A stretch of 13,254 nt of DNA from the UHGV virus genome UHGV-0180761; one strand, given 5' to 3'. The notes under the pieces were generated by a model. It was given only the letters and a program-made list of their open reading frames with translations. It had not been told where the DNA came from and made no database searches. The DNA comes from a virus. Shown here piece after piece: positions 3,336 through 13,249 of the stretch. The translations under genes were made by a program, and so were the position numbers. Position 1 is the stretch's first letter; every line of letters begins with the position of its first letter.

Positions 3336-3674
3336 CTATTTCCCTGAATTTACGACGAAACTGTTCGAGCGGGCTGAAGCACTCATGCTCATAGCCTTCG
3401 CGGAGGTAGATAACACGTTGTGTTTCCGGCTCCCAACGAATGACTCTGACGGGCACACCGTAGTGATCTTTGAACCAGCGGTTAACTTGTCGCAAAGGAC
3501 TGTCTCCTTCTGCCGGTTGAAATCACCCACAGCCCACTCTGCAAAGCTGTGGGTTACAATTTCCCTGTCACCTGGTACATTTACTGCATAGCAATACTCC
3601 ACCTTCGCTTTTCCACCCGGTACAGGAAGCGCAATCAGTTGCGAGCGACGGTAGTGTGTTGTTAAACTGTTCAT
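3336..3674 (-). CDS. ymfM: YmfM-like protein (112 aa)
   Basis: ORF length equals K-12 YmfM (112 aa) and sits in the same position after the YmfL-like gene; ATGA start/stop overlap with the upstream gene. Identity by length and synteny only. Confidence 0.6.
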
Positions 3675-4234
3675 GCGTTAGTTTCTCCACAGTCACGACA
3701 CGCCACGGCGCCCGGAGCTGCACACTCGCGGGCGTCACTACTTTCTGAAACGCAAAAGATTTTGTAGACCAGTGCTGCATGCTCCTGCAGCTTCGAAATT
3801 GAGAGATACAGCTCATCGTTAATTGCTGTCTTCTCATGCGGTTCCACTACACCGTCTTCAATTGCTGAACGAATCTGTTTTGAATAACTGCCGATCTGTT
3901 CAATGACTTCCAGCAGGCGTTGGTTGATATCGGCGTTGTCCACATCCTCGACGTCAGGAAGAGACACAAAGACGCCATTTGCAGACTGCGCCACAGCATC
4001 AGCAATGAAGTGAGTGCCACCAGCACGCTGTAAAACCATTGCCCATCCCAGCGGGAAAATCTGATCGCCATCTGCACGAAGGCGGTTGAATAAAGCGTTT
4101 TCTGTTACATCGAGCCAGTCAGCCGCTTCAGCGTAACCACCCGGCAACGCCGCGATAGTTTTTCTGACAGCTTTCACGTACCACTCAGGCTGTTTTTCTA
4201 TTTTCCAGTGATGCTTACCCACGGTTAGCCTCAT
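3671..4234 (-). CDS. ymfL: YmfL-like protein (187 aa), function unknown
   Basis: First gene downstream of cro on the minus strand, coupled to the YmfM-like gene by an ATGA overlap; C-terminal CxxC pair ([17 protein letters not shown]). Name by synteny and length (K-12 YmfL about 189 aa). Confidence 0.6.
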
Positions 4235-4265
4235 CGTTCTGTGGTTAAAAATTGAAAGTGTTCTG

Positions 4266-4466
4266 CTAATCTTTCGGATAGATATCCGGTCTTAAGTCAG
4301 ATTTCGTAATTGCACCTGACGTGCATTGCTCAAGTTTTTTAGCCAGCACAAAACTGGCTTTTTTATAGCCATTGAAAACCAGCCGTAAGTAGCCAGGTGT
4401 TGAGCCAACTTTTCCGGCCAACTCGCCCTGCTGTTCTTTGGTTAAAGAGTCCCAATACGCTTTCAT
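4266..4466 (-). CDS. croE: Cro-like repressor (66 aa)
   Basis: Short form MKAYWDSLTKEQQGELAGKVGSTPGYLRLVFNGYKKASFVLAKKLEQ with an HTH; GAGG Shine-Dalgarno upstream of ATG at 4466; divergent from the cI-type repressor across an operator region. The 167-aa ORF in the track is an artefactual extension through the operators. Confidence 0.75.
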   Translation of the reverse strand: MKAYWDSLTKEQQGELAGKVGSTPGYLRLVFNGYKKASFVLAKKLEQCTSGAITKSDLRPDIYPKD

Positions 4467-4468
4467 AC

Positions 4469-4493
4469 AATATGTACCTCCGGTGTACATATT
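4469..4493. promoter_or_regulatory. Operator-like palindrome AATATGTAC-N7-GTACATATT (OR site)
   Basis: Perfect 9-bp inverted arms directly upstream of the cro start, in the cro/cI intergenic region. Confidence 0.55.
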
Positions 4494-4520
4494 ACATGAT
4501 TGAAATGAACCTTCAAGATA

Positions 4521-4541
4521 CTTGTACCTTAACGGTACAAG
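4521..4541. promoter_or_regulatory. Operator-like palindrome CTTGTACC-N5-GGTACAAG (OR site), overlapping a putative PRM-like promoter
   Basis: Perfect 8-bp inverted arms 16 bp upstream of the repressor ATG; TTTAAT at 4545-4550 is a possible -10 that would give a near-leaderless repressor mRNA (inference). Confidence 0.55.
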
Positions 4542-4556
4542 GGTTTTAATTTCGTT

Positions 4557-5231
4557 ATGAAAACAATCCATGACATCCGGCGGTCTAACGCCAGAAAACT
4601 GAGAGATGGTGTTGGCGGGAATTCTTCCTTTGCCACTATGATTGATCGCGAGCCAACCCAGACCAGCAGGTTTATGGGAGATGGTGCTACTAAAAATATC
4701 GGTGACAGCATGGCACGACACATCGAAAAATGTTTCGACCTGCCTGTCGGATGGCTCGATCAAGAACACCAGACAACGAACATCACAAAAAAACCTGATG
4801 TTTCAATCACTAATAAACAAATCACATTAGTCCCTGTCATATCATGGGTACAGGCCGGAGCATGGAAAGAAGTTGGATATTCTGAGGTTGATTTGAGCAC
4901 AGCAGAAACGTATCCCTGCCCTGTACCCTGTGGGGAAATGACTTATATCTTGCGGGTGATAGGTGATTCAATGATTGATGAGTACCGCCCGGGAGACATG
5001 ATTTTTGTCGATCCTGAAGTACCTGCCTGCCACGGTGACGACGTTATTGCATTGATGCACGATACAGGCGAAACCACCTTCAAAAGGTTGATAGAAGATG
5101 GGACACAGCGTTATCTCAAAGCGTTAAACCCAAACTGGCCTGAGCCTTACATTAAGATCAACGGTAATTGCTCTATAATTGGTACAGTGATTTTCTCAGG
5201 AAAACCAAGAAGATACAAAATCAAAGCCTAA
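4557..5231 (+). CDS. cohE: CI-type prophage repressor with C-terminal S24 (LexA-like) autopeptidase domain (224 aa)
   Basis: C-terminal S24 motif (VIGDSMIDEYRPGDMIFVDPE ... TFKRL, Ser/Lys dyad context); divergent from cro; length equals K-12 CohE (224 aa). Confidence 0.85.
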   Translation: MKTIHDIRRSNARKLRDGVGGNSSFATMIDREPTQTSRFMGDGATKNIGDSMARHIEKCFDLPVGWLDQEHQTTNITKKPDVSITNKQITLVPVISWVQAGAWKEVGYSEVDLSTAETYPCPVPCGEMTYILRVIGDSMIDEYRPGDMIFVDPEVPACHGDDVIALMHDTGETTFKRLIEDGTQRYLKALNPNWPEPYIKINGNCSIIGTVIFSGKPRRYKIKA

Positions 5232-5243
5232 TCAATGTTTATG

Positions 5244-5266
5244 AACCTGCTTCGGCAGGTTTTTTT
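5244..5266 (+). terminator. Rho-independent terminator downstream of the repressor gene
   Basis: AACCTGC-TTCG-GCAGGTT hairpin followed by a run of 6-7 T, starting 13 nt after the repressor stop codon. Confidence 0.7.
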
Positions 5267-5270
5267 ATAC

Positions 5271-5303
5271 TTGACAATGTACCTTTGAGATACATAATGT
5301 ACC
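5271..5303 (+). promoter_or_regulatory. PL-like sigma70 promoter with two direct AATGTACC operator half-sites
   Basis: TTGACA (5271-5276), 16-bp spacer, CATAAT (5293-5298); AATGTACC at 5276-5283 and 5296-5303 overlap the -35 and -10, sharing the TGTACC core of the cro/cI operators. Confidence 0.55.
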
Positions 5304-5380
5304 CAAGCGAAACAACGAACAGGCAGGACGCCCACGAAGTAGCCGCCTGGGGCATATGAAGTCCAGGATGATTCGTTAGC

Positions 5381-5407
5381 AACAAAAAAGCGCCCTACAG
5401 GACGCTT
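5381..5407 (-). terminator. Minus-strand intrinsic terminator-like hairpin
   Basis: On the minus strand: AAGCG(T)CC-TGTAG-GGCGCTT followed by TTTTGTTG; lies about 240 nt downstream of the stop of the 144-aa minus-strand gene. Confidence 0.4.
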
Positions 5408-5465
5408 AGCTCTTTAACAATCTGGTCCCCATCAACAAGTAACTGATAACTTGAGGAGATGTGAA

Positions 5466-5672
5466 ATGCACAAAACAGAACCCAAAATCGTCGCGCCTGG
5501 CTACACAGATGAGGAAATTTATGAGTGGATGACAAAGAAGCTGGCAGCTATAAACCAGCTTCGTGAAGTGCTGTCTTATCGACAGGAAACAATAGACTCC
5601 TTAAAAAAACTGGATCAGGAAATCACGGTTTTATCACAGGATGTTACTTTAGATATTGTGCAGACAAATTAG
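5466..5672 (+). CDS. Hypothetical small protein (68 aa), first ORF after the PL-like promoter
   Basis: ATG at 5466 with GAGGAG Shine-Dalgarno 6 nt upstream (the ORF track started at an upstream TTG); predicted helical/coiled-coil-like. Its 3-prime end overlaps the convergent 144-aa gene by 29 nt. Confidence 0.4.
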   Translation: MHKTEPKIVAPGYTDEEIYEWMTKKLAAINQLREVLSYRQETIDSLKKLDQEITVLSQDVTLDIVQTN

Positions 5673-6078
5673 GATCCCATTCATTTTCGTCAAAATCATC
5701 AAAGTGATGAATTTGTGATCTCCAGTCTCGATAATCTAAAAATTTCTGGGCGGTTACGCTTATTTTATCAAGTGTGAGTTCATCCTGAATTGAAAGAAGA
5801 AGTTCATCAAATTTCATCTCATTAATCTGTTTTGGCATCCAGTGATGCTTCATCAGAATAAGGTGAACCAGAGCCTTTTTCCCATTCAACTGATTATAGG
5901 GAGTGCCGAATTTCTTCCGGTGCTCATGTAAGACAAGGTCCAAAAGAGTAAGTAATGTTGCCCTTGATTCAACTTTGCTTATTTCGACTGATGACACTAC
6001 CCCACTGATTTCAATGCCCCGATACTTTCCAACATTTTCACAGTGGGATTTGTACAGCGTATAGATATTACCGGACAT
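5644..6078 (-). CDS. Hypothetical protein (144 aa), AT-rich moron gene of unknown function
   Basis: Clean ORF with AAGGA Shine-Dalgarno about 7 nt upstream of ATG at 6078; visibly more AT-rich than flanking prophage genes; opposite orientation to the surrounding plus-strand operon. No motif recognised. Confidence 0.6.
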   Translation of the reverse strand: MSGNIYTLYKSHCENVGKYRGIEISGVVSSVEISKVESRATLLTLLDLVLHEHRKKFGTPYNQLNGKKALVHLILMKHHWMPKQINEMKFDELLLSIQDELTLDKISVTAQKFLDYRDWRSQIHHFDDFDENEWDPNLSAQYLK

Positions 6079-6092
6079 TTCTTTTCCTTTTG

Positions 6093-6143
6093 CGTTGTTG
6101 GGGATAACCAGATTAACCGAATCCTTGTTGTTGGGGAATAACC
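6093..6143. repeat. Direct repeat GTTGTTGGGGATAACCAG / GTTGTTGGGGAATAACCAGG upstream of the 144-aa gene
   Basis: Two 18-20-bp near-identical copies (one has an extra A) separated by about 13 bp, sitting 15-65 bp upstream of the minus-strand start codon. Confidence 0.6.
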
Positions 6144-6364
6144 AGGTCCACCTCGCCTGATGTGGCTAAAAGCAGGCACATAACAGCTAAGTATTTTCAA
6201 CCAGAGAGAATCCTTAGCGTTGTGGTGAATGCGGCTCAGCGCACGCGGGTTAAGGTTGAGGCTGACAGTCGACCTTCTGTGGATACCCACCCGCCTGGTG
6301 TGCAACCTTCGCCAGGCACCGGGAGGCACCCGGCACCACAACTTTATGCTGTGTGTAGTCCTGG

Positions 6365-6410
6365 CGGTACCAGTTTGTACCCTTGCTTCCGGCTGGTACC
6401 GTCCTTTTTA
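6365..6410 (+). promoter_or_regulatory. Inverted repeat CGGTACCAG-N19-CTGGTACCG followed by a T-run; operator cluster or terminator-like element in a non-coding stretch
   Basis: Perfect 9-bp arms; the spacer contains TTGTACCC (same core as the cro/cI operators); followed by TCCTTTTTA. Lies in a roughly 400-bp GC-rich region with no convincing ORF. Confidence 0.35.
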
Positions 6411-6546
6411 CAAAACAGAGAAGAGCATCACCGGACGACGGGCTCATAACCCAATCCATCCGGGCGGCTGCCACCGCAGGTGTTCTTCTCTGTTTTGTGG
6501 AGAAACTAATCGGCCTTGCAGGGTCGATATGATGAGGAGCAGCAAA

Positions 6547-6909
6547 ATGGCTAGCGAACGCAGTACTGATGTGCAGGCATTTATCGGGGAGCTGGACGGC
6601 GGCGTATTTGAAACCAAAATCGGCGCAGTTCTCAGTGAAGTCGCTTCCGGTGTGATGAACACGAAAACCAAAGGTAAGGTCTCACTCAACCTGGAAATCG
6701 AACCATTTGATGAGAACCGTGTGAAAATCAAACACAAACTCTCATATGTTCGCCCGACTAACCGCGGGAAAATTTCCGAAGAAGACACCACCGAAACGCC
6801 GATGTATGTCAATCGCGGTGGTCGCCTGACTATTCTGCAGGAAGACCAGGGACAGTTACTGACTCTTGCCGGTGAACCTGACGGAAAACTCCGCGCAGCA
6901 GGTCGTTAA
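6547..6909 (+). CDS. YfdP-like prophage protein (120 aa), function unknown
   Basis: Start set at ATG 6547 (GAGGAG 8 nt upstream) rather than the 226-aa track ORF; 120 aa and position upstream of a YfdQ-like gene match the CPS-53 yfdP-yfdQ-yfdR arrangement as I recall it. Confidence 0.55.
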   Translation: MASERSTDVQAFIGELDGGVFETKIGAVLSEVASGVMNTKTKGKVSLNLEIEPFDENRVKIKHKLSYVRPTNRGKISEEDTTETPMYVNRGGRLTILQEDQGQLLTLAGEPDGKLRAAGR

Positions 6910-8476: not shown

Positions 8477-8519
8477 CTAGTGAAATAGTTTTGTAGCAAA
8501 AGAAATGAGGTTATCAAAA

Positions 8520-8765
8520 ATGCTTCAAATGCTGACACTTGAGGAATGGGCTGCGGAAAAATACAGAAGTAATCCTCCAAGCGTGTCCACATTGCGTCGT
8601 TATGCTAAGCAGAATTTATTTTGTCCACCGGCAATGAAACAAGGTCGACTATGGCGAGTGCGTGAGGACGCAGAGTTAGTTGGGGAATTAGTTACTCCTG
8701 TCATCAAGAAAAATGATTCTATTATTCTACAAAGGATTTTAAGTAATGGCAGCCAGACCACGTAA
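8520..8765 (+). CDS. xis: Excisionase (81 aa)
   Basis: Small basic protein directly upstream of and overlapping the integrase start by 20 nt; start set at ATG 8520 (GAGG 9 nt upstream), giving 81 aa, the length of K-12 XisE. Confidence 0.7.
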   Translation: MLQMLTLEEWAAEKYRSNPPSVSTLRRYAKQNLFCPPAMKQGRLWRVREDAELVGELVTPVIKKNDSIILQRILSNGSQTT

Positions 8766-9873
8766 AAATAATGTTTCAGTCCCGAACTTGTATCCGCTTT
8801 ATAGTAGAAAAGTAAATAAAGTCTATTGGCGATATAAACATCCAGTGACCGGGAAGTTTCATTCTTTAGGCACAAACGAAGCTGAAGCCATTGCTATTGC
8901 CACTGAGGCAAATTCACGCCTGGCTGAGCAAAGAACCCGGCAGATTCTGGCTATCAGTGACAGGATCGCAACCAGCAAAGGAAAAGCAATCACAACGTCA
9001 ACCTGGTTAGATCGCTATCAAGCAATCCAGGAAGACAGACTGAAAAGTGGCGATATAAAGCTCAACACCTATAAACAGAAAGCCAAACCAGTATCCTTGC
9101 TCAGGGAACGAGCAGGACTGAAGTTGATATCAGCCGTTGATGTCAGAGATATAGCACAATTACTTGATGAGTATATCTCTGCTGGACAGCCTAGAATGGC
9201 CCAGGTCGTAAGGTCTGTATTGATCGATGTGTTTAAGGAAGCACAGCATTACGGCGAAGTTCCACCAGGGTATAACCCTGCTCTTGCAACGAAGCAACCC
9301 AGAAGGAAAATTAGCCGTCAACGCCTCAGCCTAGAAGAATGGAAAAAAATATTCGATATCGCAGACGCCGCTCATCGTTATATGGGAAATGCCATGCTCC
9401 TAGCTTTGGTCACTGGGCAGCGTTTAGGAGATATATCCAAAATGAAATTTAGTGATATTTGGGAGGATCATCTTCACGTCATTCAGGAAAAGACCGGGAG
9501 CAAAATCGCTATCCCTCTTTCTTTACGTTTGAATGCTATCAACTGGTGTTTACGTGATGTAGTAGCTCGCTGCCGTGACTACGCAGTCAGCCCATACTTA
9601 GTGCATTTTTTCCGTACTACATCACAGGCTGAACGTGGCGCACAGGTAAAAGCTAATACACTAACGATGAACTTTAGCAAGGCACGTGATCTGGCAGAAA
9701 TTGATTGGGGTACTGGAACTCCAGCAACTTTTCATGAACAAAGATCTTTATCTGAGCGTCTTTACAAGGAACAAGGGATTGATACCAGAAAGTTACTGGG
9801 CCATAAAACCCAGCAGCAAACCGATCGTTACCATGATGACCGAGGGAAAGGTTGGAGCAAAGTAGCATTGTAA
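8746..9873 (+). CDS. intE: Tyrosine integrase, phage integrase family (375 aa)
   Basis: C-terminal catalytic region with conserved Arg/His/Tyr context (LLGHKTQQQTDRYHDD), N-terminal arm-binding region; 375 aa equals K-12 IntE; preceded by xis. Confidence 0.9.
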   Translation: MAARPRKNNVSVPNLYPLYSRKVNKVYWRYKHPVTGKFHSLGTNEAEAIAIATEANSRLAEQRTRQILAISDRIATSKGKAITTSTWLDRYQAIQEDRLKSGDIKLNTYKQKAKPVSLLRERAGLKLISAVDVRDIAQLLDEYISAGQPRMAQVVRSVLIDVFKEAQHYGEVPPGYNPALATKQPRRKISRQRLSLEEWKKIFDIADAAHRYMGNAMLLALVTGQRLGDISKMKFSDIWEDHLHVIQEKTGSKIAIPLSLRLNAINWCLRDVVARCRDYAVSPYLVHFFRTTSQAERGAQVKANTLTMNFSKARDLAEIDWGTGTPATFHEQRSLSERLYKEQGIDTRKLLGHKTQQQTDRYHDDRGKGWSKVAL

Positions 9874-10865: not shown

Positions 10866-11705
10866 CTATCTAAATCTAACCTCACAAAACCAGTTATTTT
10901 CCGAGAGACAACTATAGAGTGCGGATTGCCAAGAATTTAAGCTTACCGATTTTTTTCCAGCTGCGGTTTCAGTCAAGTATTTTTTTAACTCGATACTCCC
11001 CCCCCCATCGTAAATTCTCTTTGCGATATATTCAATGCTCGCTAGTTCTTCAGCTGCATGTGATGCATAAAGAGCAGACAACTTAAATGCCTTAAAGTGA
11101 TACTTCATACGTTTAGCTAAAAGTGGGGGGCAATCTTCAGGTGGCTCTACATAAAACTCTATCGCTACAGGAATAGATTCCCGTATTTTTGCCTTAACCC
11201 AAACAAATGCTTCTACATCATCGTAATATGGGTGCAAAGTTTCTTCTTCTGAGCAAATTGGGATATCTTCGCTCTTTGTTTTATTACAATCCTGACAGGC
11301 TGGTATAAGATTAAAAGGCGATACAGCCAATGATGGAAAATGTGCTTTAGGTAAGTGATGATCTAATGTCGATACTACTCTTTGAGAACATAGTGGGCAT
11401 CTTCCATGATCTGGAAGTGACATTAACTTGTCATAATAGATACGCCCTGGGGCTAATTTCTTAGCCATTCTGCTTGTATAGACAACCTTCATTTCGTCAA
11501 CTGTAACAACAGTGGCAACATTGTCTTTAGGCAAAATTGTATGTAATTGTGCAATTGATACTTTTGCATCAAATTCTATTGAGGAATCTTCTATTTCTTG
11601 AGAACATGCTATAAGCCTCCTCTTTAAATCTTCATCGCGAACTCGATCAATGCATGCATTAAATACATCCAACGCACTATCATTCGGTTTTAAGAGTTTT
11701 TTCAT
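10866..11705 (-). CDS. HNH endonuclease-domain protein (279 aa), second gene of an ATPase-nuclease operon
   Basis: Zinc-finger HNH signature CPLC(103-106) ... DHHLPK(115-120) ... N132 ... CQDCN(137-141); the ATG overlaps the stop of the upstream ATPase gene (ATGA), so the two are translationally coupled. Confidence 0.8.
   Translation of the reverse strand: MKKLLKPNDSALDVFNACIDRVRDEDLKRRLIACSQEIEDSSIEFDAKVSIAQLHTILPKDNVATVVTVDEMKVVYTSRMAKKLAPGRIYYDKLMSLPDHGRCPLCSQRVVSTLDHHLPKAHFPSLAVSPFNLIPACQDCNKTKSEDIPICSEEETLHPYYDDVEAFVWVKAKIRESIPVAIEFYVEPPEDCPPLLAKRMKYHFKAFKLSALYASHAAEELASIEYIAKRIYDGGGSIELKKYLTETAAGKKSVSLNSWQSALYSCLSENNWFCEVRFR
10998..11006. repeat. Homopolymeric C9 tract (G9 on the coding strand) inside the HNH gene
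   Basis: Directly visible: ctccccccccccatc at 10996-11009; encodes Gly234-Gly236 of the HNH protein. Confidence 0.9.
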
Positions 11706-13249
11706 GATTGGTTTCTCTTAATTAAAAACAAAGCCCGCAAAATACCTCTAGCTTCAATTCCAAGTTGCCCATTGAAATTTTGCACAGCTGAATCGTAATC
11801 TTCGAATTTATTTACAGCATCGTCAAGAAGATTATGGAATCCAGAGTCGGTATTTTCCAATCCAAATACCTCCCTCGTTAGTATACCCACATTTTCACCG
11901 AAAGATTCTGTTTCTAGCCTTTCTACTTTAGACAAGTAGCCACTACGCCACAACTTCCACGTACAGCTTCGAGGAACTTCCTGGAGAACTACAGGAGAGT
12001 GGGTAGCTATTATAGATACTGCATTCCTATTAATTAATAAATCAGAAAGAGACCTTACAAAAGCTGATAATAATGGTGGATGGAGATGAGCTTCTGGTTC
12101 ATCTAAAAAAACCAAGCTTCTTTCTTCCATTGTCTCGACAAGTCTAGTGATAGTTAGCAATACAATTTTGTGCCCGGAACTTAAATTTTTGAATACTCTT
12201 CCTGCAATATCTTTAAACTCATCTTCATCTTGTCTATTCAATATTGATGCTACATTAATGTCAGCAAATACTGGATCTGACTCCAGCTTATCCACAGCCC
12301 TTTTCCAACGTTCAATTTTCCCTCCTGCCTTACAAGAAAGCATACTTTTCACGAATTCATTTTTCAATATAACAGGGCTTTTGGGCGGGAGACTTTTCTC
12401 ATCACCTTTTTTTACTCTTTTTAGTCCCACATATGAAAACTGTATACCTGTAGATTTATCTTTTTTTTCTGATAAAGGTTCTGTTTCATCAAAAGCGCTA
12501 AAAGTGACTGATACTACGTTAGAGAAAAGCTCACCAGCTAGTTGATCTTTAGATGAAAATTCACCGACTTTTGTTGGCGTTGTATTTTCGTCAATTAATG
12601 AACTAATCATATTATTCATTAAATGCGTTTTCCCAACACCATTCCGACCAATTAGCACATGAATATTTGTTGGGGGATTGCTCTCTGGTATCACTTCAAA
12701 ACTTAACTTAATACGGTCAGAGTCAGTGCCTTTCATCACTGGTGAGTTATATGAAAATGAATATTTTGAAAGTCGAGCACCTCCGTTCGCAAGTCGACGA
12801 AACTGTCCCTTAATAGATGTATGGCTGACGGATCTCAGAAGAGATATGCTAGTGACCCTCTCATTTATTGCTTTATTATATATATCTTCACTCAGAGCAA
12901 TATCATTAAGCGATGATAATATTTCATTTCGGATATCTTCTCCTAGTTCATTCAACACTTCGTAAAAACTATCATCTTGACCAACGGAGAAAAAACTCTC
13001 ATCTAGTTTTTCGAAAGCTTCAGGGATACTTGGTCTACTTTGACCTTTCGCCATATTCAATTGGCCAATTTTAGTAGAACCAATAATATTCTTATCCTTA
13101 TTTGAATCTATATAAACCAATGTATACATTGTAGAAAATTCAAACCAGTCATCCCAATTATCAGTAATTAAATAGGCACAGTTAGATTGTTCAACAGAGC
13201 ACATACTTCCCGCAGGCAGCACCTTAAATCTCATCTTTATCCCACTCAT
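11702..13249 (-). CDS. ABC-type (AAA_15/AAA_21-like) ATPase, 515 aa, with an unrecognised 200-aa N-terminal domain; first gene of the ATPase-HNH operon
   Basis: Walker A GRNGVGKT (aa 201-208, nt 12626-12649), signature-like LSSGHK (356-361), Walker B LVFLDEPE (379-386), H-loop ATHSP (415-419). In-frame TAA sits immediately upstream of the first ATG, 5 nt from the window edge, so the promoter is outside the window. Confidence 0.8.
   Translation of the reverse strand: MSGIKMRFKVLPAGSMCSVEQSNCAYLITDNWDDWFEFSTMYTLVYIDSNKDKNIIGSTKIGQLNMAKGQSRPSIPEAFEKLDESFFSVGQDDSFYEVLNELGEDIRNEILSSLNDIALSEDIYNKAINERVTSISLLRSVSHTSIKGQFRRLANGGARLSKYSFSYNSPVMKGTDSDRIKLSFEVIPESNPPTNIHVLIGRNGVGKTHLMNNMISSLIDENTTPTKVGEFSSKDQLAGELFSNVVSVTFSAFDETEPLSEKKDKSTGIQFSYVGLKRVKKGDEKSLPPKSPVILKNEFVKSMLSCKAGGKIERWKRAVDKLESDPVFADINVASILNRQDEDEFKDIAGRVFKNLSSGHKIVLLTITRLVETMEERSLVFLDEPEAHLHPPLLSAFVRSLSDLLINRNAVSIIATHSPVVLQEVPRSCTWKLWRSGYLSKVERLETESFGENVGILTREVFGLENTDSGFHNLLDDAVNKFEDYDSAVQNFNGQLGIEARGILRALFLIKRNQS

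Follow-up and report, generated by a model that had tools for sequence, protein, structure and literature searches.

How would a phage repressor hold shut a promoter whose operators look like direct repeats? The question is raised by UHGV virus genome UHGV-0180761, from which we analyzed a stretch of 13,254 nucleotides (nt), hereafter the window. Immediately past the terminator of a cI-type repressor gene, a first-pass annotation made from the letters alone had marked a near-consensus sigma-70 promoter pointing toward the xis-int block and had taken it as the equivalent of the lambda early-left promoter (PL). It had also described the two operator-like elements of this promoter as direct repeats, unlike the palindromic operators between cro and cI, so that a different mode of repressor binding might be implied. 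We conclude, with a probability of about 0.8, that 5271-5314 is the PL and left-operator (OL) control region of an e14/SfV-type lambdoid prophage, and that it is controlled by the repressor through two palindromic operators. The elements concerned are these:

4557-5231, plus strand: cI-type repressor gene, 224 amino acids (aa), the product 100% identical to YmfK/CohE of Escherichia coli K-12 e14.
5243-5268, plus strand: predicted intrinsic terminator of the cI transcript, GAACCTGCTTCGGCAGGTTT plus T-run; labelled as a terminator in the SfV and Ayreon records.
5271-5298, plus strand: predicted PL promoter, kept in SfV, SfIV, Ayreon, yong2, EPP-1 and K-12 e14.
5278-5294: OL1, the strong operator, TGTACCTTTGAGATACA, with one mismatch; it takes up the promoter spacer and extends two bases into the -10.
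5298-5314: OL2, the weak operator, TGTACCCAAGCGAAACA (two mismatches), reaching from the final base of the -10 across the predicted start to about +10.

On the plus strand, the -35 TTGACA (5271-5276), a 16-base-pair (bp) spacer and the -10 CATAAT (5293-5298) match the consensus at 11 of 12 positions. In a promoter scan these hexamers formed the best promoter-like site within 4200-6300; the number of such sites in that region was at chance level (4 versus 4.3), so that only the quality and the position of the PL site count. As to position, a terminator-like hairpin (5243-5262) with its T-run lies 12 bases past the repressor stop codon (5231), and PL follows this cI terminator in the same orientation as cI, at the head of the plus-strand block that ends in xis-int. 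The same gene order, cI-PL-xis-int, was present in SfIV and e14, and the Ayreon record carries the annotation 'promoter' at the position equal to PL. The near-consensus promoter directly after the repressor terminator was confirmed, and its assignment as the PL equivalent was supported; every relative with this immunity type conserves it, down to 69% identity. Judged from these elements, PL would act as a sigma-70 promoter, with a predicted transcription start near 5305.

We then consider the repeats. AATGTACC is present at 5276-5283 and 5296-5303, 20 bp from start to start, and a third copy lies on the minus strand at 3574-3581, making three copies in the 13.2-kb window versus 0.35 expected. 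A reverse-complement arm was found 7 bp past each left arm, ATACA at 5290-5294 and AAACA at 5310-5314. When TGTAC-N7-GTACA was searched for in the window with at most one mismatch, three matches were obtained versus 0.24 expected, namely the two cro/cI operators and 5278-5294. Because each AATGTACC is followed by a reverse-complement arm, in a layout like that of the right operator region (OR), the two copies are left arms, belonging to a tandem pair of 17-bp sites, OL1 and OL2, whose centres are 20 bp apart. The OR sites used for comparison are as follows:

4473-4489: cro-proximal OR operator (OR-a), TGTACCTCCGGTGTACA, a perfect TGTAC-N7-GTACA, present in 75 of 75 unique related loci.
4504-4524: candidate weak third OR site, AATGAACCTTCAAGATACTTG, between the strong sites and overlapping the predicted -35 of the early-right promoter (PR).
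4523-4539: cI-proximal OR operator (OR-b), TGTACCTTAACGGTACA, a perfect palindrome TGTACC-N5-GGTACA.

To rank these sites, we used a symmetric position weight matrix (PWM), which was trained on related loci only, with the window excluded, and scored 21-nt segments (the site plus 2 bp on each side). OL1 reached 26.7 bits, on a par with OR-a (26.3) and OR-b (24.0), followed by 4504-4524 (10.8) and OL2 (6.0), the last being the fifth-best position among about 26,000. The only other score above 0 in the window was 3.4 bits at 4920-4940, inside cI. Around OL, no further score above 0 was obtained within 100 bp that could mark a third site; OL has two sites, and the three adjacent operators of lambda, P22 and 434 are a trait of those classic examples rather than of the functional class. 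TGTACC half-sites are also present inside cI, at 4847-4852 (minus), 4922-4927 (plus) and 5181-5186 (minus), the second of them within the weak 4920-4940 site. A cI-internal operator at 4920-4940 was rejected on account of its 3.4 bits, and the excess of TGTACC (12 versus 4.07 expected) is unconvincing without operator copies.

Natural variation was informative about which bases of these sites are held constant. A scan of viral contigs, in which the pattern was fixed at the -35, both left arms and TAA and nowhere else, yielded 123 loci, whose PL sequences fall into 63 distinct variants. The right arm of OL1, none of whose five bases was fixed, reads GTACA or ATACA in 62 of these variants and GCACA in the remaining one; ATACA occurs naturally as the right arm of the cro-proximal OR operator, too. 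By contrast with the arm, the 7-bp spacer of OL1 varied widely, keeping only its first C and last G, which gives TGTACC-N5-G[G/A]TACA. The right arm of OL2 occurred as AAACA, CAACA, GAACA, ATACA, GTACG and AAACG. Among loci that lack the leader RNA described below, it read AAACA, AAACG, GAACG, ATACA or GTACG, at a constant distance of 7 bp from the left arm. In the same loci, the two OR sites were exactly 50 bp apart in 75 of 75 distinct cro-cI regions, across which the central 5 bp of the cI-proximal site varied freely.

More distant relatives, found via similarity of the repressor region and not via the operator pattern, showed the same arrangement. Hafnia phage yong2, 74% identical, keeps both OL sites, as TGTACCATTGAGATACA and TGTACCTAAAAGAAACG. 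In Edwardsiella phage EPP-1, which is 69% identical, the palindromic form is evident at both sites, TGTACCCATGCGGTACA and TGTACTTATAAGATACA. Closer to the window, the PL/OL region of SfV differs in spacer bases only. The candidate third OR site is likewise kept in yong2 and EPP-1, which could be due to the promoter alone. The Shine-Dalgarno sequence of cro lies inside the spacer of the cro-proximal operator, and all that the SfV record shows by way of operators is a 'putative operator region' in the cro-cI interval.

Three other explanations of the site were weighed. The one that survives best, which we nevertheless consider unlikely, is that OL1 is the sole functional operator and that the second AATGTACC is kept for the -10, the discriminator and the first transcribed bases, with AAACA as the start of the leader RNA. 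OL2 does score only 6.0 bits versus 24-27 for the other three sites, the TAAT of the repeat belongs to CATAAT, -AACA is followed in most loci by a conserved leader start (CAAC/GCGAAC), and the left arm of OL2 in Ayreon is TGTAT. However, yong2 and EPP-1 retain the TGTAC past the -10 although it serves no function in the promoter, and loci without the leader RNA keep the right arm, still 7 bp from the left one. Moreover, the second site of EPP-1 reads TGTAC-N7-ATACA, as good as OL1 of the window, and OL2, weak as it is, holds its fifth rank.

Less probable still is the proposal that AATGTACC forms true direct repeats 20 bp apart, to which the repressor binds head-to-tail, as monomers or half-dimers, unlike at the cro/cI operators. 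The left arms with two flanking bases are indeed identical over 8 bp, within a full 10-bp unit A[C/T]AATGTACC, both strong arms have the same orientation, and the right arm of OL2 is poor, matching at 3 of 5 positions. Against this, the right arm of OL1 is conserved like the left arms of the OR sites while its 7-bp spacer drifts, OL1 scores level with the OR palindromes under a symmetric PWM, and both EPP-1 sites are palindromic. The OL2 right arm holds an RWACR-like pattern even before different downstream sequence, and the C-terminal domain of the repressor is of the dimerising lambda-cI type. Two operator-like repeats 20 bp apart over the -35 and -10 therefore stand as first described, but not their description as direct repeats rather than palindromes, since each copy has a reverse-complement arm and that of OL1 is near-invariant. 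Taken together, the palindromic layout shared with the cro/cI operators, the conservation of the OL1 arms and the EPP-1 palindromes leave no basis for a different binding mode; the sole real asymmetry is the weak right arm of OL2. We regard the direct-repeat binding mode as a false lead, now closed.

The least credible alternative, that the site is a chance match to the consensus and not an active promoter, early-left transcription starting elsewhere or reading through from cI, can point to the chance-level number of promoter-like sites in the region, but it conflicts with the 11/12 match, with the retention of both hexamers down to 69% identity, with the equally strong TTGACA promoters that unrelated immunity types carry at this place, 19-22 nt before the same leader RNA, and with the strong terminator between cI and PL.

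The preferred reading, two palindromic operators under one repressor, has points against it as well. The shortcomings of OL2 listed above (3 of 5 matches in its right arm, its low PWM score and TGTAT in Ayreon) count here too, and the conservation of its -AACA could partly reflect constraints from the initially transcribed region or the leader RNA. The left arms and TAA are invariant by construction of the viral-contig scan. No helix-turn-helix (HTH) was detected by Pfam in the N-terminal 90 residues of the repressor; binding as an HTH dimer is predicted from a weak N-terminal similarity to the SPC32H phage repressor 5d50 (E 0.0018) and from the symmetry of the sites. Cooperativity at OL would be by analogy, the 20-bp distance between centres being unlike that of lambda. 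Finally, no published footprint, start-site map or reporter assay of PL was found in the searchable literature.

The C-terminal domain of the repressor belongs to Peptidase_S24 and is homologous to those of lambda cI, LexA and UmuD. In a lysogen, PL would be shut off by this repressor, encoded just upstream, binding as a dimer to 17-bp two-fold-symmetric sites of the form TGTAC(C)-N5-(G)GTACA. A dimer on OL1 would lie between -35 and -10, and one on OL2 would cover the predicted start together with the end of the -10. With a strong site and a weak one placed side by side at a distance of about two helical turns, filling may be cooperative by analogy with lambda: OL2 would probably be filled from OL1 via the C-terminal domains, as at adjacent lambda operators. 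SOS-triggered self-cleavage by the S24 domain would then release PL and PR jointly, and PL would fire rightward into the early-left operon, through the leader RNA and small open reading frames (ORFs) to xis and int.

Published data on K-12 agree with parts of this scheme. The 'YmfT' iModulon contains ymfJ, ymfH, xisE and intE together with the early-right genes ymfT, ymfL and ymfM and the SOS genes sulA and recN (PMC12132413), and YmfK is listed among SOS-sensitive repressors (PMC8249747); both observations are consistent with one cleavable repressor acting on both promoters. The ymfK mRNA of K-12 is leaderless (PMC4681348). In the window, a -10-like hexamer, TTTAAT, lies about 6 nt before the ATG of cI (4545-4559), without a Shine-Dalgarno sequence and beside the cI-proximal operator, a placement that fits a leaderless ymfK mRNA.

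The immunity region as a whole is shared with well-known phages. Across 4200-5700, identity between the window and Shigella phage SfIV is 98.7%, and SfV, cdtI, Ayreon, 2H10 and a series of Stx2c phages share 96-99% identity with the window in their immunity regions. In K-12 e14, where the same PL lies upstream of ymfJ, the stretch from CTTGACA through OL2 differs from the window by one base, in the OL2 spacer. We conclude that e14, SfV, SfIV, cdtI, Ayreon and the Stx2c phages have the same immunity type as the window. With Ayreon, cdtI and the Stx2c phages, homology ends at about 5314, the edge of OL2, by megablast, and at about 5328 by blastn, which is roughly where the immunity module should end. 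Downstream of the operators the region is a mosaic: 5380-6170 is common to the window and SfIV and absent from SfV and e14. No published mapping of the e14/SfV operators was found in literature searches. A model in which the operators read TGTACC-N5-GGTACA, OL holding two of them and OR two or three, thus covers the immunity type of K-12 e14 YmfK/CohE, of the Shigella serotype-converting phages SfV and SfIV, and of cdt and Stx2c phages. The genes that frame the control regions are these:

3671-4234, minus strand: cII-like gene, in lambdoid gene order.
4266-4466, minus strand: cro-like gene, 66 aa, YdaS/HTH_3 type, the first gene of the early-right operon; its counterparts are the annotated Cro of SfIV and SfV and ymfT of e14.
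5466-5672, plus strand: first ORF of the PL operon, 68 aa, phrog_1744 (E 6e-35, full length).
8505-8765, plus strand: xis, Pfam Exc, at the distal end of the early-left block.
8746-9873, plus strand: int, at the distal end of the early-left block, as in the annotation of SfIV and e14.

What does PL transcribe first? At the 5' end of its predicted transcript we found a structured RNA, whose parts are as follows:

5313-5378, plus strand: structured leader RNA, 66 nt, at the 5' end of the PL transcript, folding into a three-way junction.
5314-5319/5372-5377, 5322-5324/5330-5332 and 5346-5350/5363-5367, plus strand: leader helices P1, P2 and P3, respectively.
5321-5343, plus strand: invariant core of the leader, AGGCAGGACGCCCACGAAGTAGC, 22-24 nt.

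In blastn searches, 5311-5379 recurred in phages with unrelated immunity regions, always as unannotated DNA past the repressor gene. Carriers included SfII, ST64B, ZF40, YeP1-3, Pantoea AH07, mEp237, mEp460, SPN3UB and Klebsiella phages; the leader is also present in K-12 e14, in SfV and, among the sets scanned, in over 200 other loci of prophages and phages with many immunity types. It was detected in 1846 of 5426 complete E. coli genomes (about one third), where it is unannotated among the matches listed, and the exact 22-nt core occurs in 92 stretches of species-representative genomes, nearly all of them Enterobacterales. Yong2 has no leader RNA; a tRNA-Gly(CCC) gene lies about 130 nt downstream of its PL (L004, 2472-2545). 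With Rfam 15, the window gave no match at the gathering threshold, and 5311-5379 gave no plus-strand match at E up to 10; literature text searches with strings of the leader sequence returned nothing relevant.

The flanks of the leader vary in a compensatory manner around the invariant core. In 50 non-redundant sequences, the fold with outer helix P1, the small invariant hairpin P2 and hairpin P3 was 95% paired, versus 72.6% in column shuffles (0 of 500 reached the observed value) and 23-44% in slid registers. Ten of the 14 pairs were changed on both sides in these sequences, and covariation supported P1 and P3, which an independent count made with 106 sequences bore out. A covariance model of the leader (R1, run with filters off) found only 5313-5378 in the window (92 bits), that is, a single copy, the PR side having none. 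In 153 unique loci, the start of the core is mostly 19-22 nt past the -10 of a strong promoter, and these promoters, always of the PL type, carry many operator types, lambda-like ones included. This placement indicates that the leader RNA is the 5' end of PL transcripts.

HK022-type put RNA allows RNA polymerase to read through terminators in cis without phage proteins, and this activity is blocked by mutations in the zinc-binding domain of rpoC. The leader lies, as a put-type element does, directly downstream of an early promoter and folds into stem-loops. Our best guess is that it would be a cis element acting on the elongating polymerase or another conserved host factor, in the manner of a put-like antiterminator; the main alternative is a 5' stabiliser or processing signal. 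The fuller proposal, that this undescribed conserved leader is a protein-independent cis regulator, likeliest a processive antiterminator or anti-Rho element analogous to put and evolutionarily unrelated to it, is tentative, and we hold it to be possible rather than probable.

Homology to put was rejected. HK022 putL was located by the numbering in PMC9378689, and the leader resembles it in position and size. HK022 putL and the annotated HK639 putL-like element resemble each other and not the leader, and the covariance model gave no match at HK022 putL/putR (L009) or at the HK639 putL-like element (L016, 34187-34312); its best non-self matches had E of at least 0.26 and lay elsewhere than the put sites. 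The strings ACGAAC and CAGGAUGA, shared between leader and put, were judged coincidental. A hammerhead-like three-way junction was likewise dismissed after comparison by eye, as the strands of the leader's junction are at odds with the CUGAUGA and GAAA cores. Same-strand terminator-like hairpins past the leader were rare, present within 600 nt in 36 of 232 unique loci and within 300 nt in 3 of 232, so that the leader would be neither an attenuator with its own terminator nor a stand-alone small RNA (sRNA). On the opposite strand, such hairpins were present within 600 nt in 115 of the 232 loci, about three times as many as on the same strand, which points to frequent insertion of convergent morons directly after PL.

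If the leader controls elongation or termination, it would represent a second, independent class of phage antiterminator RNA and would explain how a long early-left operon is expressed through convergent morons and terminators without a recognised N. In prophage annotation, it would serve as a marker of early-left promoters.

Past the leader, the PL transcript of this mosaic variant contains two further elements:

5388-5407: G+C-rich hairpin, a good minus-strand terminator (T-run 5387-5380) with a poor plus-strand T-tract.
5409-5420, plus strand: perfect rrn-type boxA string, GCTCTTTAACAA, directly past the hairpin.

A boxA search with at most one mismatch gave this one match versus 0.10 expected, and of 153 loci that bear the leader, 27 have the string, within the same mosaic segment. 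It may be coincidental, as it overlaps a repeated motif: AATCTGGTCCCCATCAACAAG, 14-21 nt, lies at 5419-5439, and its reverse complements lie about 660-700 bp away at 6095-6114 and 6124-6137. This motif stands upstream of both of two convergent genes, 5466-5672 (plus, phrog_1744) and 6078-5644 (minus, phrog_5286), and could be a shared operator, a 5'-untranslated-region element or a partner in long-range RNA pairing. A transcription-termination immunity of the P4 or SfV type was also considered for this downstream region and set aside.

Farther downstream, a permissive Rfam scan of 5150-6400 gave a single match, sub-threshold but significant, to STnc100 at 6197-6382 on the plus strand (35.6 bits, E 8.6e-6). 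STnc100 is a prophage sRNA family related to PasD (bioRxiv 10.64898/2026.05.13.724894), and in SfV the STnc100-like sequence (L001, about 4735-4935) does not code for protein. ORF 5997-6341 (minus) and the 5' part of ORF 6229-6909 are therefore likely to be spurious. A Septu-type defence system of two genes is located past the int end of the prophage, at 10866-13249 on the minus strand. It consists of a PtuA-like ATPase (11702-13249; PADLOC PDC-M01A and PtuA, E 1e-195 to 1e-210) and an HNH/PtuB-like nuclease (10866-11705; PDC-M01B, E 1.7e-106).

Compared with known systems, the PL/OL region is closest in plan to that of lambda. In both, PL comes after cI, pointing the same way, and serves an operon that extends to xis-int, tandem two-fold-symmetric operators that follow the OR consensus overlap the -35/-10 and the start, and the repressors have homologous self-cleaving S24 C-terminal domains. 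They differ in that OL has two sites here and three in lambda, with centres 20 bp apart here and 23-24 bp in lambda, and OR has two strong sites 50 bp apart where lambda has three adjacent ones. The recognition sequence TGTAC-N7-GTACA is unrelated to that of lambda, and rexAB is missing between cI and PL. Unlike in lambda, no N gene or nutL was recognised, an N homologue being found neither in the window nor in the annotations of e14, SfV and SfIV; in their place stands the leader RNA, in this mosaic variant together with the rrn-type boxA. The order of hairpin and then boxA at 5388-5420 is as in rrn leaders, although, unlike in rrn and lambdoid nut sites, neither a boxC nor an N-type boxB was recognised near this boxA. 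As for put, the leader shares with HK022 putL and the HK639 putL-like element no detectable homology in sequence or structure, it is present in one copy only, and its hairpins are enclosed by an outer helix to form a three-way junction; yet each of them is a two-hairpin cis RNA of about 65-75 nt. By these comparisons, PL/OL of the window is an ordinary lambdoid region of a known kind, whereas the leader RNA behind it appears to be real, widespread and undescribed.

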